Assembly (NCBI GenBank): GCA_016182185.1
Contig: JACOXU010000003.1
Location: 123,881 to 187,880 of the forward strand
Origin: Candidatus Levyibacteriota bacterium
GTDB taxonomy: Bacteria > Patescibacteriota > Microgenomatia > Levybacterales > UBA12049
Length of the DNA: 64,000 nucleotides
Reading direction: 5' to 3'
Shown here in pieces: positions 10,972 through 61,600 of the stretch. The translations under genes and the position numbers were made by a program. Positions within the stretch are counted from its first letter, which is position 1; each line of letters begins with the position of its first letter. Under the pieces are notes generated by a model that saw only the letters and a list, made by a program, of their open reading frames with translations, had not been told where the DNA came from and did not search any database.

Positions 10972-12294
10972 TTACGGTAGAGAAAATTTACTACAGAGTG
11001 TTTTTACCTCTTCTTTAATTTCCAATAATTTTTTATTCTTCTCAACCCTTTTTTTGAAATCTTTCCAGAATTCGCTTCTTTTGGCTTTATCCAAAGGTAA
11101 AACCTCACTGGAAATCTCATTTATTACATCATTTATCCATTTGGCAATTTGCACCATTTCTTTCTCTTTTATGCCCCGAGTCGTGATAGCAGGAGTTCCC
11201 AATCGAATTCCTGAAGGATAAAATGGAGGCATGGGATCGTTGGGAACTGCATTCTTATTCACTACGATTCCTGCTACTTCCAAGGCATAAGCCGCCAAAG
11301 CGCCATTAATTTTCTTATTAGCAAGATCAATCAAAAGTAAATGGTTGTCTGTCCCGCCGCTTACAAGGTTGAACCTCGATTTGGTCAATTCCTCAGCCAA
11401 AACTTTCGCATTTTTAACAACCTGCTCTGAGTATTTTTTAAATTCCAGCTTACTTGCCTCAAGTAAAGAAACTGCAATTGCGGCTGTTTGGTTATCATGC
11501 GGTCCTCCCTGCAAGCCCGGAAAAACTGCTTTATCAATTTTACCTGCTAGCTCCGGGTCTTTTTTTAGTCCTTTTTCTGTCACCATAATCATGGCACCTC
11601 TTGGCCCCCTTAATGTCTTATGGGTTGTTGTCATGACGATATGAACATAAGGAATTGGGCTTGGATGAGTCCCTCCAATAATCAATCCCGCTATATGAGA
11701 TACGTCAGCTAGTAGATACGCTTCGACTTTATCTGCAATTTCTCCAAATCTTTTGAAATCTATAATTCGGGGATATGCCGTGGCTCCGCATACTATTATA
11801 TTGGGTCTTTCCTTCAAAGCTAGTTTTTCTACTTCGTCGTAATTAATCAGGCCGTTCTTGTCAAGATTATAAGGGATAATTTTAAAGTACTTTCCGGAAA
11901 ATGAAACGGGAGATCCGTGCGTTAAATGCCCTCCGAATGCAAGAGATAATCCTAAAATTTTGCTTTTAAAAGGCTCCAAAAGAGCAAAATATACGGCTGT
12001 ATTTGCCGGAGATCCGGAATATGGCTGCACATTTACATGCGGAACACCGAATAATTTTTTTGCTCTTTCTTGCGCTAAAATCTCTATATCGTCGATCAAA
12101 GTGTTTCCCTGATAATATCTTTTCTTCGGATAACCCTCTGAATATTTATTATTAAGAACTGATCCAAGAACTTCAAGCACGGCTTTTGAAGCGTAGTTTT
12201 CCGATGGAATCATCTCCAAAACATCTTCCTGCCTTTTTTCCTCTTCTTTTACTAATTTGTAAATTTGCGGATCAACCGCTTTTAAATTCTTCAT
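10972..12294 (-). CDS. glyA: serine hydroxymethyltransferase
   Basis: 440 aa; PLP-lysine motif VMTTTHKTLRGPRG, full-length SHMT. Confidence 0.9.
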   Translation of the reverse strand: MKNLKAVDPQIYKLVKEEEKRQEDVLEMIPSENYASKAVLEVLGSVLNNKYSEGYPKKRYYQGNTLIDDIEILAQERAKKLFGVPHVNVQPYSGSPANTAVYFALLEPFKSKILGLSLAFGGHLTHGSPVSFSGKYFKIIPYNLDKNGLINYDEVEKLALKERPNIIVCGATAYPRIIDFKRFGEIADKVEAYLLADVSHIAGLIIGGTHPSPIPYVHIVMTTTHKTLRGPRGAMIMVTEKGLKKDPELAGKIDKAVFPGLQGGPHDNQTAAIAVSLLEASKLEFKKYSEQVVKNAKVLAEELTKSRFNLVSGGTDNHLLLIDLANKKINGALAAYALEVAGIVVNKNAVPNDPMPPFYPSGIRLGTPAITTRGIKEKEMVQIAKWINDVINEISSEVLPLDKAKRSEFWKDFKKRVEKNKKLLEIKEEVKTLCSKFSLP

Positions 12295-12320
12295 ACTATC
12301 TTTACTGTAATGCGGAGAGC

Positions 12321-12412
12321 TTACAAAATTTTCTCAGCGAGCTTTTGCGCCATCAGTCAGCTTGTCAGGTAATAACTTACTCGCACTGCGAACGAGAAAA
12401 TTTTCGTAAGCG
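12321..12412 (-). ncRNA. structured intercistronic element between folA and glyA (long-range 17-bp stem)
   Basis: GCTTACAAAATTTTCTC ... GAGAAAATTTTCGTAAGC arms enclosing about 55 nt with internal GCGAG/CTCGC pairing. Confidence 0.3.
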
Positions 12413-12422
12413 ACCTCAGCAT

Positions 12423-12935
12423 TTATTTTTCTAGGTCAATAAATCTGAATTTTATTCCCTCTGATTCTCCAAATTCTTCTTTCATCAACCTTTTAAATTC
12501 TGAATAATCCGGAAAAAATGTATCAGCCCCAAAATCCCCCTCTACTATTGTTAAGTATAGCTTATCTACAAGCCCCTTTTCTATGGCCTCTCTGAAAATT
12601 TCTCCTCCTCCGAATATAAAAATTTCTTCGGATCCCGGACTTTGCTTTGCTTTTTCAATGCCTGCAATAAGATCTCGAGCGATCGTAACTTCAGGGGAAT
12701 AAAAACTTACGCTTCTAACCCGTTCAGGATCTCTGGTAATCACGATACTCGTTCTTTCAGGCAATACTCTTCCGATAGATTCAAATGTTTTCCTGCCCAT
12801 TACAAGCGGGTGGCCGCGGGTGAGTCGCCTCATCCTTTCAAAGTCCTGGGGAATGCGAAAAAGAAGATCATTATTCTTCCCTATCCCTCTTTTTTCATCC
12901 ATCGCCGCAACAATACTAACTAAATTTTCTTTCAT
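12423..12935 (-). CDS. folA: dihydrofolate reductase
   Basis: 170 aa; N-terminal IVAAMDEKRGIGKNNDLLFRIPQDF and GRKTFESIG motifs of DHFR. Confidence 0.85.
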   Translation of the reverse strand: MKENLVSIVAAMDEKRGIGKNNDLLFRIPQDFERMRRLTRGHPLVMGRKTFESIGRVLPERTSIVITRDPERVRSVSFYSPEVTIARDLIAGIEKAKQSPGSEEIFIFGGGEIFREAIEKGLVDKLYLTIVEGDFGADTFFPDYSEFKRLMKEEFGESEGIKFRFIDLEK

Positions 12936-13348
12936 AACTTCAATCCTTTTTTTACCACATCTTCTGTATTCTTCAGGAGATTATAGTTCTTTAAGCTCCC
13001 TATCTCAACCCATTCCGGAATCGTCTCTTCTGCTTTCTTAATTTCGCCTTTGAATACCCGGCAGAAAAATACCCTCCAGGAATATGTTTTTATCCCATCT
13101 TTTCTTTCAAGATCTGTGATATATAGATTTCCGGGAAAATCCAAAAGATTATCAATTGTCGTTTGAAGCCCAGTCTCTTCTTCTAATTCTCTTTTGGCTG
13201 CCTCGATTTCGTCTTCCCCTAGATCTAATCTTCCACCCGGCAGGCCGTAAATCCCAGTCAGGTGCCCTGCTTTTTCAGTATGTTTTACAAGTAAAACTTT
13301 TCCGTTTTTAATGATCAAAACCGCAACACTTGGAATTATTTCTGTCAT
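12932..13348 (-). CDS. NUDIX hydrolase
   Basis: 138 aa; Nudix box GGRLDLGEDEIEAAKRELEEETGL; 4-nt overlap with folA. Confidence 0.75.
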   Translation of the reverse strand: MTEIIPSVAVLIIKNGKVLLVKHTEKAGHLTGIYGLPGGRLDLGEDEIEAAKRELEEETGLQTTIDNLLDFPGNLYITDLERKDGIKTYSWRVFFCRVFKGEIKKAEETIPEWVEIGSLKNYNLLKNTEDVVKKGLKL

Positions 13349-13372
13349 TTATTAAAATATTAATTGCTGGAT

Positions 13373-13400
13373 TATAGTGATGTATCAATACATCACTATA
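13373..13400. promoter_or_regulatory. 28-bp perfect inverted repeat TATAGTGATGTAT-CA-ATACATCACTATA (putative operator)
   Basis: 13-bp arms, 2-bp spacer between trpR-like gene end and NUDIX/folA start; related split copy at about 13801..13853 upstream of the trpR-like gene. Confidence 0.5.
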
Positions 13401-13402
13401 AA

Positions 13403-13837
13403 TTAACCAAACCATCTTTTTACAAATTTTGAACTGTGAAGATATCTATCTTTAAATACCTTTCTCTCCTTATTTATTTCCTTTTCTGTTCTCTTTAATG
13501 CTAAAACAATTCCTCCTTCGCCTTCTTCGATTATTTTTTTTATTTTCGAAACAGTTTGAGTGCTTGTTTTTGATTTGGATGCGACAGTTCTTAAATCTAA
13601 ACCTTTTACCAAAAGGCTTGCTATGTGCCATCTCCTTTTAAGCATCCTAAGCTCGGATTTTGTAAGAATATCTTTCAAAAACTTTTTGATCTCCTCTGTA
13701 TTTTTTAAAGAATTGACAATTTCGTAAAGAAAATGAATTTCTTTGAAATATTCTTTATTTTGAACTTCTTCTTTTGGTTTTGACATATTAATTAAGAATT
13801 GTAGTCCTAAATTATCAAATTTGTTTCCATGTATCAA
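13403..13837 (-). CDS. TrpR/YerC-YecD-like HTH DNA-binding protein
   Basis: 144 aa; SELRMLKRRWHIASLL...GLDLRTVASKSKTSTQTVSKI resembles Trp-repressor-like YerC family; flanked by 28-bp palindromes. Confidence 0.5.
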   Translation of the reverse strand: MIHGNKFDNLGLQFLINMSKPKEEVQNKEYFKEIHFLYEIVNSLKNTEEIKKFLKDILTKSELRMLKRRWHIASLLVKGLDLRTVASKSKTSTQTVSKIKKIIEEGEGGIVLALKRTEKEINKERKVFKDRYLHSSKFVKRWFG

Positions 13838-13941
13838 TACATCACTACAATATCAAAATAAAACAAAGTATGGTAATTTCCAATTTCAATATGTAGGAAA
13901 CATCAAAAATAATTCGTAAAGACTTTTAAAAAGAGGGGTCT

Positions 13942-14925
13942 TTAAAATCCTCCCACCACTGTGACTTCTCCTCTAATCGGTGGCCAGGGATTATAATTTT
14001 CCAGTGTAAAATCTTCGTATTTTATATCATCGATATCTTTGAGTTTGGGATTTATTTTCATCCTCGGGAAAGGACGCGGTTTTCTTTTGAGCTGCTCTTT
14101 TACCTGTTCAAAATGATTGCTATAAATATGCGCATCTCCAAAAGTGTGAACAAAATCCCCTGCTGGATAACCAGTCAGATGAGCAAAAATCATGGTGAAA
14201 AGCGCGTAGCTTGCGATGTTAAAGGGAACTCCCAGAAAAAGATCAGCGCTTCTTTGATAAAGCTGGCATGAGAGCTTTCCGTTTATGACATTGAATTGAA
14301 AGAGTGTATGACAAGGCGGAAGAGCAACCGACTTTCCCTTGCCTGCCATCTCGTAGACAAATTCAGGATTCCAGGCAGAAATAACAATATGTCTTCTTTC
14401 CGGTGTTTTTTTGATCTTTTCAATCGCCCATTTCACCTGGTCAATTTTCCGTCCGTCTGATGCCGGCCATCTTCTCCACTGAACCCCATAAACCGGCCCC
14501 AATTCTCCAAATTTTTCCGCAAACTTTTTGTCATTTTTAACTCTTTCTATGTACTCGTCCTGGCTTAGCATTTTTTTATTTTTAATATTTTTTTTGTGTT
14601 TTTTATTTTTTATATTTAATTTTTTATTTTCAAACGATTCTTTATATCGTTTGAAACCCCAATCATCCCAGATATGAACACCATTATCCACCAGATATTT
14701 AATATTTGAATCGCCCCTGAGAAACCAGATCAGCTCATGCAGAATTCCGCGCAAGAATACTTTTTTGGTTGTAAGAAGAGGAAGTCCTCGAGAAAGATCG
14801 AAGCGTATCTGCCGACCAAACACGCTTTTAAACATGATGCCCGAATTAAACTCGTGCTTCTCGAATCCATTCTCCATAACGTCTTTTAATAAATTCAAAT
14901 ACTGATATTCTTCACTTCGTTTCAT
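13942..14925 (-). CDS. thyA: thymidylate synthase ThyA with lysine-rich insertion
   Basis: 327 aa; catalytic [21 protein letters not shown] (Asn specificity residue kept), about 45 aa K-rich insert. Confidence 0.9.
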
Positions 14926-14982
14926 ATTAAAAATTAAATATTAAATAGTAAATATTTTATTTTTTATATTTAATATTCTATA

Positions 14983-15516
14983 TTACACTTGCCGTTCCTT
15001 GCGCCGAGTCGTGACTCTTCCTCCCTGCCATTGGCCGCGGTATTTGCTTCCTCCACCCCTTACTTCATGGAATATTACATGCACAAATCTTGCTCCCATT
15101 TCTATCTCAACACTCACCGGCCCTTCGTTCTTAAGACCAAATGTAAGTTCTCCTTGATATCCGGGTTGTATCGGTCCGGTTCTGATAAAAACTCCCGAGC
15201 GAAAAGTCGTAGTTCTGGGAATTATAACCGCAGATAAATTAATGGGAAGATTTATTTTCTCAATTGTCTTGACCAGATAAAAATCTCCGGGTTTTATTTT
15301 GATTTTTTTATCTTTTCCGATTTTTGCTACAGTTTTTACCTCGGGTGTTTTTCTGTGCGTTTCTCCGAGGAGCGCCTCGCCTGAGATTTTGTAAACCTCA
15401 CCCAATCTTAAATCAAATCCTGCTCCTTCAGGATTCTTTAATTCTCTTCCTGATAAACCTTCTACCAGTTTTTTTGTTTTTACTAATTCTAAAAGTTTCT
15501 TTGGTCCAAGAATCAT
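14983..15516 (-). CDS. dUTPase/dCTP deaminase family protein (likely dUTPase role)
   Basis: 177 aa; motif GPIQPGYQGELTFGLKN typical of Dut/Dcd beta-clip fold. Confidence 0.6.
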   Translation of the reverse strand: MILGPKKLLELVKTKKLVEGLSGRELKNPEGAGFDLRLGEVYKISGEALLGETHRKTPEVKTVAKIGKDKKIKIKPGDFYLVKTIEKINLPINLSAVIIPRTTTFRSGVFIRTGPIQPGYQGELTFGLKNEGPVSVEIEMGARFVHVIFHEVRGGGSKYRGQWQGGRVTTRRKERQV

Positions 15517-15523
15517 AATATTC

Positions 15524-16204
15524 TTAATTCTTAAATCTTAAATCGTAAATCTTGATTATATCGGCAGTCACTTTCTCGACTGATTGTTCTCCATTTATTG
15601 TAATAATTTCATTGCTAAACTTTTTTGCGAGCCAGTCATATCCTTCCTTTATTTTCTTAAGTTTTTCCAAAGTTTCATAATATTCCTGTTTCTTATCCAT
15701 CTTTGCCAGTCTTTTTACTGCCGCCTCTTCTGAGATTTTAATGTAAAAAGTAAAATCCGGAATTATAAACTGATGATACATTGACAAAATACTTTGAGCC
15801 ACAAGGAGTATCTCGCTACCATTTAATTTATCTGACTTATCCAAAATCCCATAGGCAACTGATGACCAGAAACATCTATCAGTAATAATTATTTTTCCTT
15901 GTTCCAAAAACGGTTCAATAGTTGTCTTTGAGTGTACTTCCCGATCCGCTGCAAACAAATACTGAAAAGAGGAAGCAGGAAGTTTTATATTGCCCTGAAT
16001 AACATTATGAATAAGATCGCCGATTGGAGGTTTTCTGGTGGGCTCATGTGTTAATAAAACTTTTTTCCTTTTTTCTTCAAAATACTCTTTTAATTTTTCT
16101 GCCTGGGTTGACTTGCCGCTTCCGTCAATTCCTTCAACTGCAATATATCTACCTTTATACGGATTTCTTCTAAAATCTATATCGAACGAAACATGGTACT
16201 TCAT
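15524..16204 (-). CDS. tmk: thymidylate kinase
   Basis: 226 aa; P-loop IAVEGIDGSGKSTQ. Confidence 0.85.
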   Translation of the reverse strand: MKYHVSFDIDFRRNPYKGRYIAVEGIDGSGKSTQAEKLKEYFEEKRKKVLLTHEPTRKPPIGDLIHNVIQGNIKLPASSFQYLFAADREVHSKTTIEPFLEQGKIIITDRCFWSSVAYGILDKSDKLNGSEILLVAQSILSMYHQFIIPDFTFYIKISEEAAVKRLAKMDKKQEYYETLEKLKKIKEGYDWLAKKFSNEIITINGEQSVEKVTADIIKIYDLRFKN

Positions 16205-16348
16205 AAATTAAATTCTAAACTCAAAGCATCAAATCACAAATAATATCCAATTTCCAATACTCAAAATTCAAAATTGTTTTGGATATTAGAATTTTATATT
16301 TGTAATTTATTTGAAATTTGTAATTCTGGATTTAGAATTTAAGCAAGA

Positions 16349-16918
16349 TTATCTTTCTTCGTGAATTTTGCTTTCATCCGGTCCTTTTTGACCAACATAC
16401 TTCGCACTTTTCTTTTTGTAATAAGGAATTTCAGCTGGGGTAGAAAGTTGTTCAAAAGAGACGCTACAGATTCTCATTCCGGGGTAAAGTGCAACGGGCA
16501 TTTTGCCCATATTAGCAAGCTCAAGCGTAATGTGCCCTCGAAAACCGCATTCGATATGGGCCGCAGTTGAATGCACAACAACACCGAGCCTTCCAATGCT
16601 TGATCGTCCTTCAAGCCTCCCGGTCAGATCGTCCGGCACTTCGACATATTCAACTGTTGCACCCAAAACAAAATCCCCGGGCTGAATTATAAACGGCTGT
16701 CCATCTTTAACGCGGAATTCCTTGGTGATTTCTTCTCTTACCTCTTTCTTGAACGGATCCACATATGCATGGCGAGAATGTTCAAATACTCGAAATGAAT
16801 ACCCTAAGCGAAAATCTATCGAACACGCGCCAAGCTGGGTTGAAAAATCAGGGACAGGTTTTATCACAATTTTTTTAGACTTAATCGCCTTTTTAAGATC
16901 TCTGTCCGATAGCACCAT
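16349..16918 (-). CDS. dcd: dCTP deaminase
   Basis: ORF track gives 16349..16987; homology to Dcd begins at internal Met (MVLSDRDLKKAI vs MRLCDRDIEAWL), so start placed at 16918; palindrome ATCGCGTCTGACGCGAT lies just upstream. Confidence 0.75.
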   Translation of the reverse strand: MVLSDRDLKKAIKSKKIVIKPVPDFSTQLGACSIDFRLGYSFRVFEHSRHAYVDPFKKEVREEITKEFRVKDGQPFIIQPGDFVLGATVEYVEVPDDLTGRLEGRSSIGRLGVVVHSTAAHIECGFRGHITLELANMGKMPVALYPGMRICSVSFEQLSTPAEIPYYKKKSAKYVGQKGPDESKIHEER

Positions 16919-17073
16919 ATTAAAATTTAATTTTAAAGATGGAATCGCGTCTGACGCGATAAAACCATAGCAAAAGTTTAACATCAAAAAAGGAAATTTA
17001 AAAGTAGTAAATTAACCATCTCTTGACAATTAATTAAATTTACTTTACTGTTTTTATAGAACTTATTTAAATA

Positions 17074-17610
17074 ATGGCAAAAGTAAAATCAGGTCATGGA
17101 AGATTAATTGCGCTTTTTGTTTTATTTGTGATACTTGCGGCAATTCCCCTGACTGTTAAGATATCTCAGGAACAACAGGAAATCCGCCAGCGTGCGGCAT
17201 ATGTTATTCCAACACCAGCTCCCAGATCATCTCCTCCCTGTTTTGTTCCCCAAGCAGTTCTTGACAAGCTGAAAAGATCGATGAATATAATTTCTCAAAA
17301 TTATGGCTATGGTGATGTAGACCAAGATGGAAGTATAACAACAAAGGATGCCCTACTGATTTTAAGATATGTAGCCAAGGCGACTACTCTTTCTCCTCTT
17401 CAGATAGAAGTAGCAGATGTGGATGGAGCACCGAATCTTTTATCATATGCCTCAAACGTTACCGCAGTTGATTCCCTTTTGATACAAAGATATATCGCTA
17501 GACTTCCTCTTCCTGACGGAAGATACAGTTTTCCGGTCTGTCCCAAACCGACGCCAACTCCTGCCCCTCTTATTTCTCCTTGGTCAGTTACTCCGATTCC
17601 TACTAATTAA
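17074..17610 (+). CDS. membrane-anchored dockerin-like repeat protein
   Basis: 178 aa; TM then SQEQQEIRQRAA motif shared with next gene; Ca-binding dockerin-like segment GDVDQDGSITTKDALLILRYV ... VDSLLIQRYI. Confidence 0.5.
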   Translation: MAKVKSGHGRLIALFVLFVILAAIPLTVKISQEQQEIRQRAAYVIPTPAPRSSPPCFVPQAVLDKLKRSMNIISQNYGYGDVDQDGSITTKDALLILRYVAKATTLSPLQIEVADVDGAPNLLSYASNVTAVDSLLIQRYIARLPLPDGRYSFPVCPKPTPTPAPLISPWSVTPIPTN

Positions 17611-17661
17611 TGTCTTTTTTACTATTGACAAAGCATCTTTAACTATTCTATTCTTGTATTA

Positions 17662-20253
17662 ATGGGAAATCCTTTGCAGAAGGTAGTTGAACTTATTAAA
17701 ACATCAAGCCCCAAAAGGACAATAAGCATAATTGTCATCCTTATCATCGCCGCCGCCGTACCTCTCACTGTCATTGTTTCCCAACAACAGCAGGAAATCC
17801 GTCAGCGTGCAGCAGACTGTACAAACGGAATAATATCTGGAAGAGTCTTTTATGATAACAATCCCGAAAATGGCGTTTTTGACCCTACAGAACAAGGTTT
17901 CGATTTAATCGGACAACCAAATGTTGCCCAGGTGAACATGTGGAATAACGACACTGGAATAGCACTCAACAAAGATATAAGCGCCGGAAATGGTGTCTAT
18001 CAATTTACAGCCTCTACCAATAGAGATGGTTACCGCCTAAGATTTACTGCTCCCACGGGGTACAGGATCACAACGCCCCAAAATATTTCTCCATGGCAAG
18101 TAAGTCCGAGATCTGACGGGCGCTGGCAGGCAGATTACCCTGCCTTAAGACTCCCTCCATGTGCGCAAATATACGATTTTGGAATTACCAACGGTCAACC
18201 TCCTACGCCAACTGCTACACCTCCTCCAATCTCAAGCTGTGGTACAAATGGAAATGTTGTTTTTGACAATAAATCTTCGAGTCTCACAACTACAGCGGGC
18301 GCACCCACGACTCTTACGTGGAACCATACTGTGGGCTCTGGAAATAGTCGGCTATTGATTGTCGGGGTTAATCTTCGCACGTCTTCGGGAGGAAATATCA
18401 CTTCTGTTAGAGCCAACAATCAAAACTTGACTCGAATAGGAAATGTAATAAGTGTAGGCGGAACCTCAAGTCCGACAAGTAACTCCATGTGGTACTTACT
18501 TAATCCTCCCAGCGGTTTAGTGTCAATTTCGGTCACGGCAGACAGAAGTCTGACTATCTCAGCCGGTGCTTCAAGCTGGTCCAATGTAGACCCGAATAAT
18601 CCTTTGGGCAACTCAGTCGCAAATACAGGCAACAACTCCAATCCCAATCTATCAATAGCAGGACCTGCTTGCGGTGTTGTAGTTGATAATCTTGCCACAC
18701 CTATCGGCGACTGTCCTCAAACTCCATCTCCTGATTCGCTTCAGACCCTGCTTTGGAGCGTGAATGTGCCTGGAGATAATCTCTCTGATCAGGGAGGAAA
18801 GGGTCAAAGCGCAGGCAGTTATAAACAATCAGCTACTCAGACAACTATGTGGTGGAATAATGCTTGCAGCGGAGCTTGGGCTTTAAAAGCCGTTCCGGTA
18901 GCGGCATTTGAACCCACTCCCACACCAACAAATATTCCGACACCGACACCTACTCTAGTTGCTGGTGCCAAACCTCCCCCTTGTTTTGTCCCTGCTTCGC
19001 TTCTAAGTCAACTCGGGCTCCCAACTACTGCTGTAAGAGGCTATGGAGATGTTGATTTGGATGGTGATGTTGACATGACTGATGCTACCAAAATATTAAA
19101 TTTTGTTGCTCTAATTCCACCGCTTCCTTCACCTCTTCAAATTGAAGTGGCTGATGTTGATTCAACTTGGGGTGTTCTTTCCAATGCGTCAAGCATAACC
19201 TCAGTTGATTCACTCATGGTTCAAAGATATTTACAAAACTTACCCATACCATCACAATATAATCCACCGAACTCAAATACAATAAGTCTGCCGGTTTGTT
19301 TAGGCCAGCCTACAATCACGCCAACCCAACCGCCAACCCCTATTCCAACTACTATCAGGACGCCAACTCCAACCACTACGCCTCAGTGTACATCCGGTCA
19401 AACATGCACTGCATGTACTGCACCTGCTAATACTTGTAATGGTTCAGGCACTCAAAGCTGTACTCTGACAACAACCTCTACTGGATCTACAAACTGCCAG
19501 CAAGTTACGACTCATAATATTTCCTGTACCGGCGCGCCGGCCAACTGCACAAATGGTAATGTTTGTGTAAGTAACGCCTGTGTTGCTCCAACCGGAGTGC
19601 CCACGGCAACTGTTGTACCCACCCTGACGAAGCCTCCAGGAGTTACTGTTACAGAAGCGCCAAGAATAAGCCCGACCGCTGTTCCGACTATTCCAACCGG
19701 TAATACAGTCTTTGCCCTAAACATTGGACTTGATGGAATTGGAACTGTCGGAGATAATGTCAATCCGAATAATTCGAGTGGCTCCAATAAAAATCCATTG
19801 AGAACATCAAGAAGCGTAACTATTCAGGTGTTTGATAACAACAACACCGAGGTAGCAAATAAGTCCGGCACGCTTACCTATCAAACAGGAAGCGGCAGAT
19901 TTACCGGAAATGTGGATATGGATAGGCTTGCAAGCGCAAATTACAATGTCAAAGTAAAATCTCCAGGCTATCTAAGACGTCTTATTCCTGGAATTCAAAA
20001 TGTGACTGCCGGTCAGGCGTTTAATCTCCCGAATGAAAACTTGGTTACGGGCGATATCAACGGGGACAATGCAATTAATATTCTGGACTACAATATATTT
20101 ATAAGCTGTTCTATCTTCAGTAAAGACGGACAAGCAGTCTGCAACCAGAACCCTGACTACAAAACGCTCTCTGACCTTGATGACAACGGGGCAACTGATC
20201 AGTTTGATTACAATCTGTTTGTCAGAGAACTTTCAGTCCAAAACGGAGATTGA
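17662..20253 (+). CDS. large cell-surface protein with SdrD-B-like domain, Cys-rich module and two dockerin-like modules
   Basis: 863 aa; N-terminal TM+SQQQQEIRQRAAD; GRVFYDNNPENGVFD (Cna/SdrD B-like); Thr/Pro linkers; dockerin-like GDVDLDGDVDMTDATKILNFV...VDSLMVQRYL and C-terminal GDINGDNAINILDYNIF...DLDDNGATDQFDYNLF; about 180-aa domain shared with the giant protein at 58607..64000. Confidence 0.55.
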   Translation: MGNPLQKVVELIKTSSPKRTISIIVILIIAAAVPLTVIVSQQQQEIRQRAADCTNGIISGRVFYDNNPENGVFDPTEQGFDLIGQPNVAQVNMWNNDTGIALNKDISAGNGVYQFTASTNRDGYRLRFTAPTGYRITTPQNISPWQVSPRSDGRWQADYPALRLPPCAQIYDFGITNGQPPTPTATPPPISSCGTNGNVVFDNKSSSLTTTAGAPTTLTWNHTVGSGNSRLLIVGVNLRTSSGGNITSVRANNQNLTRIGNVISVGGTSSPTSNSMWYLLNPPSGLVSISVTADRSLTISAGASSWSNVDPNNPLGNSVANTGNNSNPNLSIAGPACGVVVDNLATPIGDCPQTPSPDSLQTLLWSVNVPGDNLSDQGGKGQSAGSYKQSATQTTMWWNNACSGAWALKAVPVAAFEPTPTPTNIPTPTPTLVAGAKPPPCFVPASLLSQLGLPTTAVRGYGDVDLDGDVDMTDATKILNFVALIPPLPSPLQIEVADVDSTWGVLSNASSITSVDSLMVQRYLQNLPIPSQYNPPNSNTISLPVCLGQPTITPTQPPTPIPTTIRTPTPTTTPQCTSGQTCTACTAPANTCNGSGTQSCTLTTTSTGSTNCQQVTTHNISCTGAPANCTNGNVCVSNACVAPTGVPTATVVPTLTKPPGVTVTEAPRISPTAVPTIPTGNTVFALNIGLDGIGTVGDNVNPNNSSGSNKNPLRTSRSVTIQVFDNNNTEVANKSGTLTYQTGSGRFTGNVDMDRLASANYNVKVKSPGYLRRLIPGIQNVTAGQAFNLPNENLVTGDINGDNAINILDYNIFISCSIFSKDGQAVCNQNPDYKTLSDLDDNGATDQFDYNLFVRELSVQNGD

Positions 20254-20330
20254 CAAGAAAAACAAAATATTTAATACTAAATTAAGTGTAGGTTTTGATT
20301 TTTGCCTTTTGAATTTTAAATTTAATTAGT

Positions 20331-20981
20331 ATGTCCAGACGAACAATTATATTAATCATAGCACTTGTCGGTATAACAGGAATCTTACTTGCTATTGCCC
20401 TGACTCAAAAAAAGGGTCCGGGACCTTCTGTGACTAAACCTTCGCCTCAGGTTCAGGTGCCTTACGCTCATACGTCGCTTGAGATAAGCAGTAATCCCGT
20501 TTCCCAGGCAACTTCTTCGGGATCATCCACCTATTCCCTGGATGTGAATATTAACACGGAAACAGATAAGGTGACTGCAGTCCAGCTTGAATTATCTTTC
20601 GACCCCAAGGCAATCTCAAATGTAGATGTTAAACCAGGCACTTTCTTTAAAAATCCTGCCCAACTTATCAAAAGAGTAAATGCTAAGGACGGAACAATCT
20701 CATATGCGCTAGGAATAAATCCCGGAGAAAATGGAATACAAGGAAGTGGAGTCGTTGCCGAAATCTCATATCGGGAAATTGGCCAATCCGGAACTTACAC
20801 CCAGATTAATTTTCTACCCAAAACATTGGTAAGCGCTGAGGGAACGGATAAATCTGTTCTTAAAAAATCAATCGGATCACTAATTATGCTCGGGGGAGCA
20901 AGTCCTGCAAATTCGACTAAGCCCGCCACTTCAGGTGCTATTCCTCAAACGACAAGAACTCAGCCTAATCCTTTTCAATAA
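20331..20981 (+). CDS. membrane-anchored cohesin-like domain protein
   Basis: 216 aa; TM anchor; LELSFDPKAISNVDVKPGTFF...DGTISYAL...GSGVVAEISYREIG pattern resembles cohesin type-I beta-sandwich. Confidence 0.45.
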   Translation: MSRRTIILIIALVGITGILLAIALTQKKGPGPSVTKPSPQVQVPYAHTSLEISSNPVSQATSSGSSTYSLDVNINTETDKVTAVQLELSFDPKAISNVDVKPGTFFKNPAQLIKRVNAKDGTISYALGINPGENGIQGSGVVAEISYREIGQSGTYTQINFLPKTLVSAEGTDKSVLKKSIGSLIMLGGASPANSTKPATSGAIPQTTRTQPNPFQ

Positions 20982-24402: not shown

Positions 24403-26610
24403 TTATCTCACCATGAAGCTTATCTCAACTGCAGTGAATCCTTTTCGTTCAATTTTTTCTATAACAGGCGGTATGTAAGAATAACTGGGGCTATTATCGA
24501 GATTTTCTATATAAAAAACTATATTTCGATAGGTGTCAGGAGATGGAGCTATTACGAGCGGGAGGATTTTTTTAGATGTCGCATCATCAAACAAAGATAT
24601 AAAAATATAAGAAGAAACTGCTCTCGTTTTTACAAATTCCAGGGTATCGGCAGATTCTTTCTCGTTTAAGCCCAACCGGCTAGATATTTGCTCAATTAAA
24701 TCCTGGACTTTTTCTTTCCTGACTACATATCCCTTAACTGGTTTATCAACATTAATCGCAGGCTCATAATCGAATTTAAAAGAAGAAACTCTTTCATTTC
24801 CGCTTGTAAAAGTACCATCACCATTTAGAATAACATTTAATCCCAAAGCTGGACTATAATTAGTATTTAAAGGATAAATGGCCGTAGTAGAATAAACAGA
24901 AACGCTTTTCCCTTCCTGTCCATACAGATACAATGGGCTGTCAGAGCATGATCCTGCCAAGTCTATCCAGGCATCGTGAAAACACTGTTGAAATTCAGGA
25001 TCTTCGGGATAATCAGGATCCCACACGCGGTTTTTCATGATATCCAATGGGTAATCTTTTCCGAGAATTTCATTGCATTGCGCAGCAGCTCTCGCGTAGC
25101 AAGCATTGGGATTTATGACATGCTTAGGAGCTGAACTTGGTGCCGGCTGAGGAGGCACAGGATCAGATTGCTGAACCAGTCTCTTGGGAGCAAGGGATGG
25201 TTTAAGTTCAAATGTTTGTAGTTGGATTTGGTTTCTTAATTGATCTGTTCCTAGAGAAAGAAGCTTAGACGAAAAATAACCCTGCGGTTTCAGATCAATC
25301 ATTTGCACGAGGCCTTTATCAAGATTCACCGTTGTTCTACTTTGAGCTGGTATATCCAGTAAATACATTGAATTAATTAATTGACTGTACTTCCCGCCAA
25401 GATTTCCCAGTTCTGAATCAGAGGTTGTTTTATCTACAGCAAGATACTTATTTTCAGAAACTAATGTAAGTATGTCCGTCAATTTTGTCCCAGTCGCAAT
25501 GTTATCTAAATTAATTTTTTGAGAGTTATTTGTGCTGACATTATAGAAATACGTGCCAGACAAAGAATCGTTTTTTGAAATTAATCTATAAACAATATTT
25601 CCGGTGAGCCTATCCCAGTTGGGATCTGAAAATATATCGTCGTTACTAGTTGCAAGAAGAGTCTTTTTCTGCCTTGTGGCAAGATCGAAGATTTCAAGCG
25701 TGTTGGATGACAAAATCGCCCTTCTGAATCCGTCAGTCTCCGAAGTTCCAGAACCTTTACGTCCATCGTAGCCTGCAAAAAGCAGTTTCTTGCCGTCCGG
25801 CGATACTTCAGGCTGGGTACTTATCATCCCATTGGTAAGTGAGGGAATATCCTGTTTATTCGTGCCTGTAAAATTTGAAACCGAGACACCGTAACCCCAG
25901 CCAGCACCTGAATTTGGGAGAAATTTATCAGTAAATAAATCTCCGCTGTCAGTTATGGCAATCGGATACGCCAGAGTAACTCCAAGTCCTGAAGTTTCAT
26001 CGTAGATAAGATTTTTTTGTGCTGGATTTGATGTATCAAGTGTATATACCCTTGATTTCCCCCCAAAGAGTGCGCCTCCCTCAGATGGGCTTACTTCCCA
26101 AACTGCCAAATATTTGGAGTTTGGGGAAACGACATAATCATCAATCCCATACCCGCTATCTGCGGTTATAACAGTTGTTTCTGTCTTAGTATCAAATGCT
26201 CTAATTACGACTTGTTTCCCGTAGTCATTTGCATCGGTATCTTTAATATAGCTAATTCTTTTCGAATCTAAAATTTTGACATGTTTTACATTCGATGGAA
26301 GCTCAACAAGTATACCGCTTTGACTTGTTGATAGGTCCAAAACTGAAATTGTTGATTTGTCTTTACTCCAAGATCCATAGATAAATGAAACTGGAGCGAT
26401 GTATGCGGTTTGTGTTTTATTTTTGTCGTCTTGCTGCTGTGGAGGATTATTTGCCTTATCGTTTTGGCTTTTTATAAATATGCCTCCTGCCAAAGAAAAA
26501 ACAACCAGAAAAAAGATTAAAATCCATTTGGCGCTATCAGAACCCAGACCAAAAAACCTTTTGACTTGAGGTGCTTCAGAAGGTAAATTTTGGGCAGTAT
26601 TTTCTTCCAT
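24403..26610 (-). CDS. large membrane-anchored extracellular protein, beta-propeller-like repeats plus C-terminal LNEKES domain
   Basis: 735 aa; N-terminal TM; TolB/WD-like SPDGKKL, SPNSKYLAVW repeats; C-terminal 250 aa homologous to 6712..8085. Confidence 0.5.
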   Translation of the reverse strand: MEENTAQNLPSEAPQVKRFFGLGSDSAKWILIFFLVVFSLAGGIFIKSQNDKANNPPQQQDDKNKTQTAYIAPVSFIYGSWSKDKSTISVLDLSTSQSGILVELPSNVKHVKILDSKRISYIKDTDANDYGKQVVIRAFDTKTETTVITADSGYGIDDYVVSPNSKYLAVWEVSPSEGGALFGGKSRVYTLDTSNPAQKNLIYDETSGLGVTLAYPIAITDSGDLFTDKFLPNSGAGWGYGVSVSNFTGTNKQDIPSLTNGMISTQPEVSPDGKKLLFAGYDGRKGSGTSETDGFRRAILSSNTLEIFDLATRQKKTLLATSNDDIFSDPNWDRLTGNIVYRLISKNDSLSGTYFYNVSTNNSQKINLDNIATGTKLTDILTLVSENKYLAVDKTTSDSELGNLGGKYSQLINSMYLLDIPAQSRTTVNLDKGLVQMIDLKPQGYFSSKLLSLGTDQLRNQIQLQTFELKPSLAPKRLVQQSDPVPPQPAPSSAPKHVINPNACYARAAAQCNEILGKDYPLDIMKNRVWDPDYPEDPEFQQCFHDAWIDLAGSCSDSPLYLYGQEGKSVSVYSTTAIYPLNTNYSPALGLNVILNGDGTFTSGNERVSSFKFDYEPAINVDKPVKGYVVRKEKVQDLIEQISSRLGLNEKESADTLEFVKTRAVSSYIFISLFDDATSKKILPLVIAPSPDTYRNIVFYIENLDNSPSYSYIPPVIEKIERKGFTAVEISFMVR

Positions 26611-26887
26611 TACTTAAATAATAGTGGAAAAATATTCGTCGGTCAAGAGGTGGTAGGAAACTATTGAATAGAATTTATCTACCCTCAGTATAACGGATAG
26701 ATCAAGCGCTATTCATTCTCCCGCCAAAGGCGGGATTCGCTTGTGGCCAATACACTTTCTCGCAAAATTTCTACTCTTAACCTAATTAGAAATTAGAAAA
26801 TTAAAAATTAGAAATTCCACTCCGCGTCAGCGGAGGGGCTTAGGTGTCTTCTCTCAATCCAATACTGAGTAAAATCGAAGTATTAGA

Positions 26888-28340
<1,453 letters not shown>

Positions 28341-58606: not shown

Positions 58607-61600
58607 CTACCGTTCGTCGACTATCCACCAATCAAACTTGATATCTCGACTGTAGCGTCTTTCAATCTCAACTGTGAAGCCTGAGCCGGCTGCTTTATTC
58701 GTAACCACGAGCGGCTGGCCTCCGGTAAGGCTTGTGGCAGTCACAAATATTCTGGATTTATTGGTCACGGCAGCCGTATCAACTACCACACTCGTATCTC
58801 CTGCGAGCAGGGTCCCCGAACCCAGCGAAGCCGCGTTTGACGCGGTGGTATCGATATTGACTTTCTTGGCTGTGATTTCACCTTCTGTTTTTATATTTCC
58901 ATTGGTATCAATCGTGACTTTGCCTGAGAGTATATTTATCCCACCCAAGCCATTGCTCTGAAGGTTCAAATCTCCAATACTATTTATAGATGCTCCCCCA
59001 TCTCCATTGTTAAGCGATGAGTCAAGTCCGTGAATTGACAAGAGCCCTGCTGCGATGTTACCGGTCACTCCCAGATCTGCAGTCGTCGTTCTGCCCAGCA
59101 CCATCAAGTTGCCTGATATTGTCGCGCTCTCTGCGTTGATATTGGTCAGATCAGGTAGAAGCGAAGCCGCGTTTGACGCGGTTGAGACACCCAATACTGC
59201 TCCATTCAGCATGCTCTGCAGGAAGGCAGATTCTGATGCCAGCTGATCCACTCTTTGTGAGAGACTATTGGTATTAAGCTCTAAGCCGGTTACTCTATTT
59301 TGCATATCCGCGAACAACGGATCACTACTCAAATCAAATGTCCCCGAAGATGAAGCTGACGATACGGGATCGTTACTTGGGTTGATCAGTCCCAGCAACT
59401 GGCTCGCCTCCTCCGCACTAAACTGCGCATATGGATTAGTCACGCTCCCATCTGCTGCAATTTGAATCCTCGGATCTCTCCAGGAAAGGTTTATAAATAC
59501 TGAAATTTTACCAATAATATCCGGATCTGAGTTGCTGTAGCCTTCAATAGCAATCCCTATAACCATTCCCGGCTTTGTTGCCTTCATGGCTACACCGGGC
59601 TTACTTGATGCAGTAAGAGAATCACCCGGCATTATTTCTCCATTTTCCGCAGATACTTTTACAGGAACACGACCAGAAAGAGCAACAGCGACTTCTTTTA
59701 CTGATCGGGGGTCTGTTTTCTGACCATGCCCACCAAGCAACACACCTGGTTTTTCTGAGATGACACCAAGCATTGCAGAATTTGTGGATGACTTTTGAAC
59801 AAATTCTGTTTCGTAGTCATGTTCAAAAGGATTATCAGGTGGGGTATCAGGTTTGGGCTGATAATTTAAACTTACAACGTCCCCAGCTTCTATTGAATCA
59901 TCAAGCGTCGGGAAATTTTCAGCTATATCATCAATCGTAAAGCTTGAACTAATACCATATACAGTACCTGCAGTTCTTGAAGCATCAATACAGTCGTCTG
60001 CAGTATCTAGAGAATCATCTGCGCAGATAGCTCCATAGGCTAGTATACCATTGCCGCCTATATTAGTAGTCACATTAGCTCCGGCTGCTCCGACAAGCAA
60101 ATCCCCCCCGCTTCCTCCTGTGACAGTAAATATAGTAGCCCCCGAGGCTGAGGCGGTAAAAATATCTAGACCAGATGTTTGGTTTATAACTGCTGCTGCC
60201 TTACCGCCTGATGCTCCGGAAAGATTAAGCATCGAACCAAGACCCGAGCTTGTGACGTTAAGTACGGCCCCTGTTGAAAGCCCATTACTCTGGGTAAGAG
60301 AAAGAACATTTGCAGTATCGGTACAGCCGCCAGTGGTAATACTGCAATTGGATGTCAGATTTGCCAATGAGCCAGATAGACTAACAGATCCAACTGGTAT
60401 CATAGAGACTCCATTGTCTACCCAATTGCCTGACCCCGTATTAGACCACGAATGAGTTGGATTCTCTTGCGTGCTGTCTGAATAAGCTACGGATGGATTA
60501 AGAAATCCGCCCTGTCTTTTTGTATTAACCCCCGTAGTCGTGAGTGTTCCGCTAACCGCTGAGGCTACTATATCTATTGCCGTTCTGCCCAAAGAGTTTG
60601 TGATGGCATTATTAGGCGTAGTACTAGAACCAGTTGAAGAGGTACAACCTGCAAAAGCGCTTCCTACAGTTTGATTAATGTTAAAGTAGCTGGCAGTAAT
60701 AACATAACCACGATCACTTCCACTTCCATTGGTGAAGTTTACACTTGTTGTATTAGCGCCTGAAGATGAAGAATCCCCCATTGCTATAGCAAAAATATCC
60801 GTAGCTACACTAGTGCCATTTGTAGCCTGACTACAGACTCTCGTAGCGGAACTTCCGCCGTACGTTACAGTATTAATTGTTTCAGAATTTGCATTCTGAT
60901 ATGCAATGGCTATTACCACCATACGGTTGCTTCCTGCTCCCAAAGTATGGCTGTTAGTTATTGTAGTATTAGTAAGAGTCCAACTACTTATAACAGAGGA
61001 GTCATAAACACTTGTATTTATGCTTAAATTTCGATTTAGATTTAGCAAATTACCGGAGTCAGTATTGATAGCTGTATATGTAGCGGTATGATCTCCATTG
61101 ATAAGATTGGCAGAAGTCAAATTGGCAGAAGTGGAAAGGACATTTAGGCCCTTACCCGTAGTTAGGGAATTTGCGGCGATTGAGAACGCGTCTCCTGTAG
61201 TTGCAGAAGAGGTTGCAAAGACAGACCCCCAATTATTTATAGTAAAGACTGTGCTTCCCGATTTTGATGCTGTGAAAATATCTGCATTTGGTGAAAGGTC
61301 TGTTTGATTTACTCTAAGAGCTGCGTTATTCCCGCTGATGCCGGATATGTCTAATAATCCTATTGGACTTGTATTTCCGATACCTACTCTGCCAATATTA
61401 TTTATAACAAATTTTGTAGAGCCTGAAGAAGAGGCGGATAGAATATAATCATTTGTATTAGTTCCAGTTTGGTTGAGAATCATCAAAGCGTTGTGTCCGT
61501 TGTTGCCTGATAGATCAAGGAGTCCAAGTGGGCTTGTGTTGCCGACCCCGACCCTACCAAGATTGTTGATGACAAATTTGGTAACACCAGAGGATGAGGC

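Follow-up and report, generated by a model that had tools for sequence, protein, structure and literature searches.

A conserved gene cassette of Candidatus Levybacteria that probably displays dockerin-tagged proteins on a membrane-held cohesin

Bacteria of the candidate phyla radiation (CPR), or Patescibacteria, are thought to live attached to other cells, and how they build and arm their surfaces is largely obscure. We analysed a 64-kb stretch of DNA from a Candidatus Levyibacteriota bacterium (the window; contig JACOXU010000003.1, positions 123,881 to 187,880), in which a first-pass annotation had picked out three genes, here called P1, P2 and P3, as a self-contained set of dockerin and cohesin surface proteins. 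The list of open reading frames (ORFs) of the window contains all three, consecutive on the + strand and at the coordinates given beforehand, and they are identical (100%) to HYT08_05085, HYT08_05090 and HYT08_05095, hypothetical proteins of a Candidatus Levybacteria metagenome-assembled genome (MAG) at NCBI. The Levybacteria belong to the Microgenomates within the CPR. We propose that the trio is a conserved, non-cellulosomal surface-display cassette of Candidatus Levybacteria, ordered as cargo and then anchor, in which the cohesin of P3 holds exported cargo that ends in an X-module–dockerin dyad (XDoc). We consider this reading probable. P3, a single type-I-like cohesin, would be anchored in the cytoplasmic membrane through a conserved transmembrane helix at its N-terminus. 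P2 would be exported by means of a family-specific leader of ~45 residues, and its XDoc would then plug into the P3 cohesin in a Ca2+-dependent manner. This binding would tether the passengers of P2 (an SdrD-B-like domain, a head domain of ~235 amino acids (aa) and a Cys-rich module) to the cell surface, most plausibly for adhesion; attachment to a host, as suggested beforehand, is plausible. P1 consists of a small leader and a Cys-clasped dockerin (DocB) with no passenger, and its DocB probably binds a partner other than that of the C-terminal dockerin of P2 (DocA). The cargo set appears to be interchangeable across strains.

The assignment of P3 as a cohesin, initially made from a sequence pattern, was borne out by profile and fold. 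P3 matched Pfam Cohesin (PF00963) with an E-value of 5.7e-10 and 40 bits, against a gathering threshold (GA) of 24.1, and no other Pfam domain was found in it. An AlphaFold2 (AF2) model built from a 65-sequence family alignment had a mean predicted local distance difference test (pLDDT) score of 87.6, rising to about 97 in the core, and showed the nine-stranded, jelly-roll beta-sandwich of cohesins. A generic Ig-like fold was the alternative named beforehand, and Foldseek searches of the PDB spoke against it: the top ~43 matches were all cohesins (E-values down to 1.8e-8; TM-scores (target) of 0.7-0.77), among them cohesins cocrystallised with dockerins and the non-cellulosomal Archaeoglobus fulgidus cohesin 2xdh. 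Searching PDB sequences with the P3 family profile also returned cohesins, for example 4ums at 8e-6. Single-sequence searches of the PDB gave weak cohesin and dockerin matches only, and profile and fold searches were required. The best structural matches were mostly type I cohesins. DSSP assigned no helix to the modelled ectodomain, so P3 appears to resemble type I rather than type II cohesins, which carry a crowning alpha-helix between strands 6 and 7 together with beta-flaps. In known cohesins, strands 3, 6 and 8 form part of the dockerin-binding sheet (8-3-6-5). Conservation in the P3 family peaks at beta3 (3.47 bits), beta6 (3.15 bits) and beta8/LPKT (3.97 bits), with sheet membership assigned from known cohesin topology and not from the model coordinates.

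Hydropathy profiles gave each of the three proteins a single hydrophobic segment, always N-terminal. That of P3 is conserved like the beta-core, with 2.74 bits compared with 1.48 bits for the linker (65 relatives, about 40% identity), and the anchor cohesins share an N-terminus of their own (MSRRTLILI...) that is never replaced by the leader of the cargo proteins. P3 has neither a C-terminal hydrophobic segment nor an LPXTG signal, and the SLH or sortase anchoring of type II systems was not found in it. P3 is best read as probably membrane-held through its N-terminal helix.

Dockerins had been claimed for both P1 and P2, and Pfam Dockerin_1 (PF00404, GA 22.9) located them there: P1 matched with an E-value of 2e-9 and 38 bits, and P2 matched in two places with an E-value of 1.3e-9. 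Scanned separately, both P2 dockerins exceeded the threshold (bit scores in Table 1). They are of different kinds, the internal one being a DocB and the C-terminal one DocA. We took a dockerin to consist of two duplicated segments, each with a 12-residue Ca-loop (D-x-[DN]-x-[DN]-G-x-[IV]-x-x-x-D) followed by a helix, and DocA has exactly this make-up. Its Ca-loops DINGDNAINILD and DLDDNGATDQFD are both canonical, each is followed by a DYN[IL]F helix, and the two helices are internally symmetric (ILDYNIFIS, QFDYNLFVRE). The linker of DocA carries an invariant Cys pair, and its C-terminus is conserved as ...SVQNGD-COOH. A beta-rich module that matched no Pfam family always precedes DocA, in P2 and in ~27 of 38 database homologues. 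An AF2 model of P2 aa 676-863, made from a 20-sequence alignment, reached a pLDDT of 92.5 and a predicted TM-score (pTM) of 0.87, with helices at 132-141, 156-162 and 172-182; given this pTM, the X-module and DocA appear to form a single rigid unit. The ten best Foldseek matches in the PDB were all type II XDoc dyads (CipA, CipB and ScaA), aligned over 185-200 columns. In the model, the C-terminus of P2 is therefore an X-module packed against a dockerin, that is, an XDoc dyad.

The DocB modules of P1 and P2 are each flanked by a pair of cysteines (PPCFVP...PVC) and have classical helices (DALLILRYV, DSLLIQRYI). The first Ca-loop, DVDQDGSITTKD in P1, is canonical. The second loop reads ADVD, a 7-residue insertion and [NS]-[VI]-T-[AS]-V-D (NVTAVD in P1), in contrast to the canonical loop of a paralogue at a related locus (L004), and Pfam aligns positions 1-40/57 only. 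Because their helix surfaces differ, DocA and DocB probably bind different partners. The likely partner of the P3 cohesin is the C-terminal XDoc of P2 and not the GDVDQDG-type (DocB) modules, and DocB probably pairs with something other than P3. Searching for homologues of P1 gave just 3 relatives. Hidden Markov model (HMM) searches of the window placed dockerins and leader in P1 and P2 only and the cohesin in P3 only.

P1 and P2 had also been said to share an N-terminal anchor motif. The motif, SQ[EQ]QQEIRQRAA after a hydrophobic segment, is indeed present in both and occurs nowhere else in a six-frame translation of the window. We found that it is part of a leader of ~45 residues that starts with a basic n-region, continues with a hydrophobic segment whose last residues are A-x-P-L-T-V and closes with a polar box, Q-x-x-Q-E-I-R-Q-R-A-A, and that these 45 residues are common to proteins with unrelated passengers. 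A profile of the 45 N-terminal positions, searched against 1.84 billion representative proteins, retrieved 1,299 cluster representatives at E ≤ 1e-3 and 241 at E ≤ 1e-10; among the matches listed, the leader lay at the extreme N-terminus in 150 of 150. We then tallied dockerins in 110 newly found leader proteins, each of at least 250 aa. A strict Ca-loop was present in 83 of them, within the last 90 residues for 81 of these, compared with 1 of 49 window ORFs taken as a control. The DocA HMM matched 76 of the 110, and 69 of these matches end within 15 residues of the C-terminus; the terminus itself is GD in 47 of the 57 tallied, and Pfam on its own finds Dockerin_1 in 30 of 90. The leader accompanies C-terminal dockerins in proteins ranging from 300 to more than 1,000 aa. 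In a logo of 128 proteins, A-20, P-18, L-17, T-16, V-15, Q-11 and Q-8 are conserved at 91-99%, with positions -5 to -1 fixed by the anchoring pattern, and right after RQRAA the information content, above 3 bits until then, falls to about 0.4 bits (background). The leaders of P1 and P2 use identical codons at 7 of 20 identical residues. As the codons are not conserved, selection on the leader acts at the protein level, and gene conversion or an RNA-level cause of the shared leader was ruled out on the same count.

The association with dockerins and the conservation boundary lead us to read the motif as a modular export or sorting leader, tied to dockerin-mediated retention, that travels with dockerins and may be removed instead of anchoring. 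The boundary suggests that removal probably takes place near RQRAA. More tentatively, and as a possibility that we would hold loosely, the leader could be a previously undescribed, CPR-specific sorting signal processed by an enzyme, which together with a C-terminal (X)dockerin would define a route of export, cleavage and re-capture on a membrane cohesin used by more than 1,000 Microgenomates protein families. At one related locus a gene for an M50/S2P-like membrane metalloprotease (HEIAHG motif) lies directly before the cohesin gene (L015:5601-6851 (+)); this is a speculative candidate class for leader processing.

The topology could also be reversed or double-anchored. The leader would then be an uncleaved signal-anchor, for which its hydrophobic segment of ~20 residues is long enough, and P3 would be cleaved after the plausible A-I-A motif that ends its hydrophobic segment, to act as a soluble cap or cross-linker, or would be anchored as well, with the cargo as a surface loop. 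RQRAA lies ~12 residues beyond the hydrophobic core and does not have the AXA form, and a passenger-less P1 would be more sensible as a membrane-anchored dockerin than as a free one. We nevertheless regard this arrangement as unlikely. The core-like conservation of the P3 helix would be unusual for a disposable signal peptide, the homology of the leaders breaks off precisely where the box ends, as it would at a site of processing, and the leader co-occurs with C-terminal dockerins. Moreover, in known XDoc systems it is the cohesin partner that is anchored to the cell (PMC4266597).

The pairing of cargo and cohesin in the proposed cassette draws on its genomic context. P3 has relatives in 120 clusters, all of them single-cohesin proteins of ~130-240 aa, of which the named ones are CPR; a precomputed PF00963 match exists for 111 of the 120. 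We fetched 19 related loci, one search for them using a narrow 11-sequence alignment. The layout that they show in Levybacteria MAGs is ThyA-Dcd-Tmk-Dcd on the minus strand, then 1 to at least 4 cargo genes on the + strand, then the cohesin gene; CofE-like and/or Pro_CA_2 genes usually come next. Leader-bearing and XDoc cargo genes immediately precede the cohesin gene in 17 of the 18 loci with upstream sequence (HMM census), in keeping with the idea of a self-contained set; the exception, L015, has a cohesin gene with no adjacent cargo. The first gene of the cassette is often a counterpart of P1: it encodes a small protein in which the leader is joined to dockerin(s) or a Cys-rich module only, with no passenger. 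Among the examples (L009:5889-6497, L010:2297-3031, L016:5248-5733 (+)) are one protein of 202 aa with two complete dockerins and one of 161 aa that is Cys-rich. Two loci carry two P3-type single-cohesin genes each in tandem (L012:265-1690, L014:5785-6972), and L014 encodes more dockerin proteins with the leader, both downstream and on the other strand. A related Patescibacteria genome encodes a 441-aa protein (L018:9942-11267 (+)) in which the leader is joined to a P3-type cohesin, a Pro/Thr linker and an XDoc. As the sole leader-bearing cohesin also carries an XDoc, we read this protein as an adaptor. It could lengthen the anchor, or even polymerise head-to-tail should its cohesin bind its own type of XDoc.

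Across 10 loci, the pairwise divergence of the cohesin correlates with that of the adjacent DocA (r = 0.83), and the correlation persists when the neighbouring housekeeping Dcd is taken into account (partial r = 0.80; partial Mantel p about 6e-4). These results bear on a second alternative, in which the modules are real and the adjacent cohesin and dockerins are not mutual partners, each binding cohesins or dockerins encoded elsewhere, host-cell ligands or glycans, with adjacency reflecting only the co-regulation of surface proteins. Against it stand the XDoc carried by the gene next to the cohesin on its upstream side in 17 of 18 loci and a co-divergence that exceeds the housekeeping control, and also the finding that conservation in these otherwise variable proteins is strongest in DocA and in the putative binding sheet of the cohesin. 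For these reasons we hold it to be improbable, even though the window has two dockerin subtypes and one cohesin, DocB lacks an obvious partner, the L015 cohesin stands without adjacent cargo and non-cellulosomal dockerins often occur without cognate cohesins (PMC9012536).

Of the extra modules attributed to P2 beforehand, the Cys-rich stretch is there, although it matches no Pfam family, and the SdrD-B-like domain is a borderline call, since its score of 29.7 bits for SdrD_B (PF17210) sits exactly at GA, with profile positions 5-77/112 covered. The head domain between them matched nothing in Pfam or the PDB, alone or as an alignment profile; candidate Pfam families for it were set aside, as single homologues gave sub-threshold matches only (E ≥ 0.007), to unrelated families. 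In an alignment of its homologues, H, P, V, P, D and Q are invariant and W and S near-invariant. Segments homologous to the head are present in a type IV pilin-like protein (N_methyl), in a protein annotated as MshQ, and in LamG_3 and RHS-associated proteins, contexts that fit an adhesive head without proving it. Passengers of the relatives include VWA, SdrD_B, LamG_3, fn3, Big_7, CBM_4_9 and S8 and M64 peptidases; they are mostly adhesin-type or have no assignment. A minimal cellulosome, with the cohesin anchoring dockerin-borne polysaccharide-degrading enzymes for the breakdown of plant fibre, is highly improbable and was rejected: CE2_N, GH2_C or CBM_4_9 occur in a few leader-bearing relatives and the invariant H and D and near-invariant S of the head could be catalytic, but neither the trio nor the window holds a multi-cohesin scaffoldin, all 120 cohesin relatives have one cohesin, the only departures are the rare tandem cohesin genes and the single cohesin+XDoc adaptor of L018, and Pfam scans of P1-P3 and of 14 further window ORFs found no glycoside hydrolase (GH) or carbohydrate-binding module (CBM) family. 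The first-pass annotation had likewise argued against a cellulosome.

Several points weigh against the display cassette as we describe it. The model leaves the role of P1 and the partner of DocB without explanation. RQRAA is not a canonical AXA signal-peptidase site, and it is the conservation boundary that suggests cleavage there. The N-terminus of P3 could be a cleavable Gram-positive-type signal peptide (cut as …LLAIA/LT…) instead of an anchor. Modelled without the crowning helix, P3 does not make a textbook type II couple with XDoc. Co-divergence could reflect the co-inheritance of linked, fast-evolving surface genes and not contact. Finally, SdrD_B reaches its threshold and no further, and the head domain has no assignable function.

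In cellulosomes, XDoc dyads attach the complex to anchoring cohesins on the cell surface, and some of the protein complexes with the highest force resistance measured are related XDoc–cohesin pairs. A close architectural reference is the type II anchoring of Clostridium (Acetivibrio) thermocellum, where the X-module and dockerin of CipA are bound to the cohesins of SdbA, OlpB and Orf2p (PDB 2b59, 3kcp, 5g5d, 4fl4). Unlike those anchors, P3 has a single cohesin with an N-terminal hydrophobic helix and no SLH domains, and its model is type-I-like and without the type II crowning helix. The cargo of Levybacteria consists of individual adhesin-like proteins instead of a multi-cohesin scaffoldin, DocA differs in its linker Cys pair and internally symmetric helices, and the host is a CPR bacterium with no cellulases at the locus. 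Ruminococcus flavefaciens offers a second likeness: the type III pair of CttA XDoc and ScaE cohesin tethers an adhesin to the wall and is specialised for mechanical load (PMC4266597). In both cases, on our reading, a substrate-binding, non-enzymatic protein is tethered by a C-terminal X-module–dockerin to a single-cohesin anchor. The likeness drawn here is one of architecture. CttA carries CBMs, whereas P2 has SdrD-B-like, head and Cys-rich modules, and ScaE is attached to peptidoglycan through a C-terminal sortase motif, whereas P3 would be membrane-held at its N-terminus, with a different pulling geometry.

Cohesins and dockerins outside cellulosomes have been assigned proposed roles in surface assembly or adhesion, with no large scaffoldin (PMC9012536, PMC10066038). 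Like Archaeoglobus fulgidus (2xdh), anaerobic methanotrophic (ANME) archaea, Omnitrophota with their giant proteins and Clostridium perfringens, Levybacteria carry these modules in an organism not known to degrade cellulose. They differ from these cases in a tightly syntenic order of cargo and then cohesin across a CPR lineage, in the XDoc dyad and in a leader present in at least 1,299 protein clusters. An analogy, and an analogy only, can be drawn with Sec signal peptides plus LPXTG/sortase and with PEP-CTERM/exosortase, where unrelated passengers share a conserved terminal sorting module and a second retention module; the N-terminal leader and C-terminal XDoc would be the Levybacteria counterparts. 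In contrast to sortase and exosortase systems, retention would be non-covalent, the conserved box is N-terminal and follows the hydrophobic segment, and no dedicated processing enzyme has been identified.

We found no description of a cohesin–dockerin system in CPR or Microgenomates in the literature. Non-cellulosomal cohesins and dockerins were already known, and automated Pfam annotation flags the proteins of the trio. What appears to be new is the combination of a transmembrane-type single-cohesin anchor with an XDoc dyad, its fixed and conserved operon across a CPR lineage, and the dedicated leader family. The cassette would give a concrete module, one probably membrane-anchored cohesin with interchangeable XDoc-tagged cargo, at a fixed chromosomal position across Levybacteria, in which the device that attaches cellulosomes to cells is apparently reused to display adhesin-like proteins. 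The leader, mostly found on dockerin-terminated proteins, could serve as a sequence handle for listing the displayed surface proteome of uncultured bacteria. If the proposal is true, the leader/(X)dockerin pathway would be a non-covalent functional analogue of sortase/LPXTG that arms the surface for an episymbiotic lifestyle, and small orthogonal cohesin–XDoc pairs may be useful parts for protein engineering.

Table 1. Features of the P1-P3 locus in the 64-kb window.
Feature	Position	Strand	Description	Evidence
P1	17074..17610	+	178 aa; leader, Pro/Thr linker, Cys-flanked dockerin (DocB), Pro/Thr tail	ORF, Pfam Dockerin_1
P1 leader	17074..17199	+	aa 1-42: basic n-region, hydrophobic segment ending AIPLTV, polar box SQEQQEIRQRAA	Leader profile match
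DocB of P1	17239..17541	+	C56 to C156	Pfam, alignment, hydropathy
P2	17662..20253	+	863 aa; multidomain protein, proposed cargo	ORF, Pfam
P2 leader	17662..17814	+	aa 1-51, ending ...AAAVPLTVIVSQQQQEIRQRAA	Leader profile, alignment
SdrD B-like domain	17839..18084	+	P2 aa 60-141; borderline	Pfam PF17210
Central ~235-aa head domain	18229..18936	+	P2 aa 190-425	Homologous segments in other proteins
DocB internal to P2	18982..19299	+	C441 to C546; P1 subtype	Pfam (31.5 bits), local jackhmmer, alignment
Cys-rich module	19387..19581	+	P2 aa 576-640; 10 Cys, between Pro/Thr linkers	Sequence
X-module-like beta-sandwich	19687..20046	+	P2 aa 676-795; always fused to DocA	
DocA, C-terminal in P2	20047..20253 (including stop)	+	P2 aa 796-863	Pfam (24.5 bits), full profile 2-56/57
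P3	20331..20981	+	216 aa; single-cohesin protein, proposed membrane anchor	ORF, Pfam cohesin, 120 relatives
P3 N-terminal hydrophobic helix	20337..20405	+	P3 aa 3-25	AF2 (helix 3-25), Kyte–Doolittle profile, conservation
P3 cohesin beta-sandwich	20472..20888	+	P3 aa 48-186	AF2, Foldseek, profile against PDB

The window is bacterial, with a G+C content of ~38-40%. An NCBIfam scan of P1-P3 gave nothing meaningful, and promoter and terminator scans gave signal at background level. Just before the trio lies a compact cluster for thymidylate (dTMP) synthesis (10972-16987 (-)), comprising serine hydroxymethyltransferase (SHMT), dihydrofolate reductase (DHFR), thymidylate synthase, two dCTP-deaminase/dUTPase-like paralogues and thymidylate kinase; its ThyA-Dcd-Tmk-Dcd part is the one that is syntenic with the cohesin cassette across Levybacteria. 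A 1727-aa ORF (58607-63790 (-)) matches no Pfam family and, in the frame listed, lacks a hydrophobic segment; its true start may be upstream. A complete 16S rRNA gene (26887-28338 (-)) lies in the window without any 23S rRNA gene, which means that the rRNA genes are unlinked. Directly downstream of the 16S gene is a 735-aa ORF (24403-26610 (-)) with one N-terminal hydrophobic segment and no Pfam family, and genes for tRNA-Cys and tRNA-Ile follow further on. Two related loci have ORFs for LAGLIDADG homing endonucleases, located downstream of the cassette at a distance of a few kb (L004:10419-11676, L017:14041-14547 (-)); the window has none at the equivalent place. Such ORFs are common in rRNA introns of CPR, and those of L004 and L017 may sit in introns of this kind.

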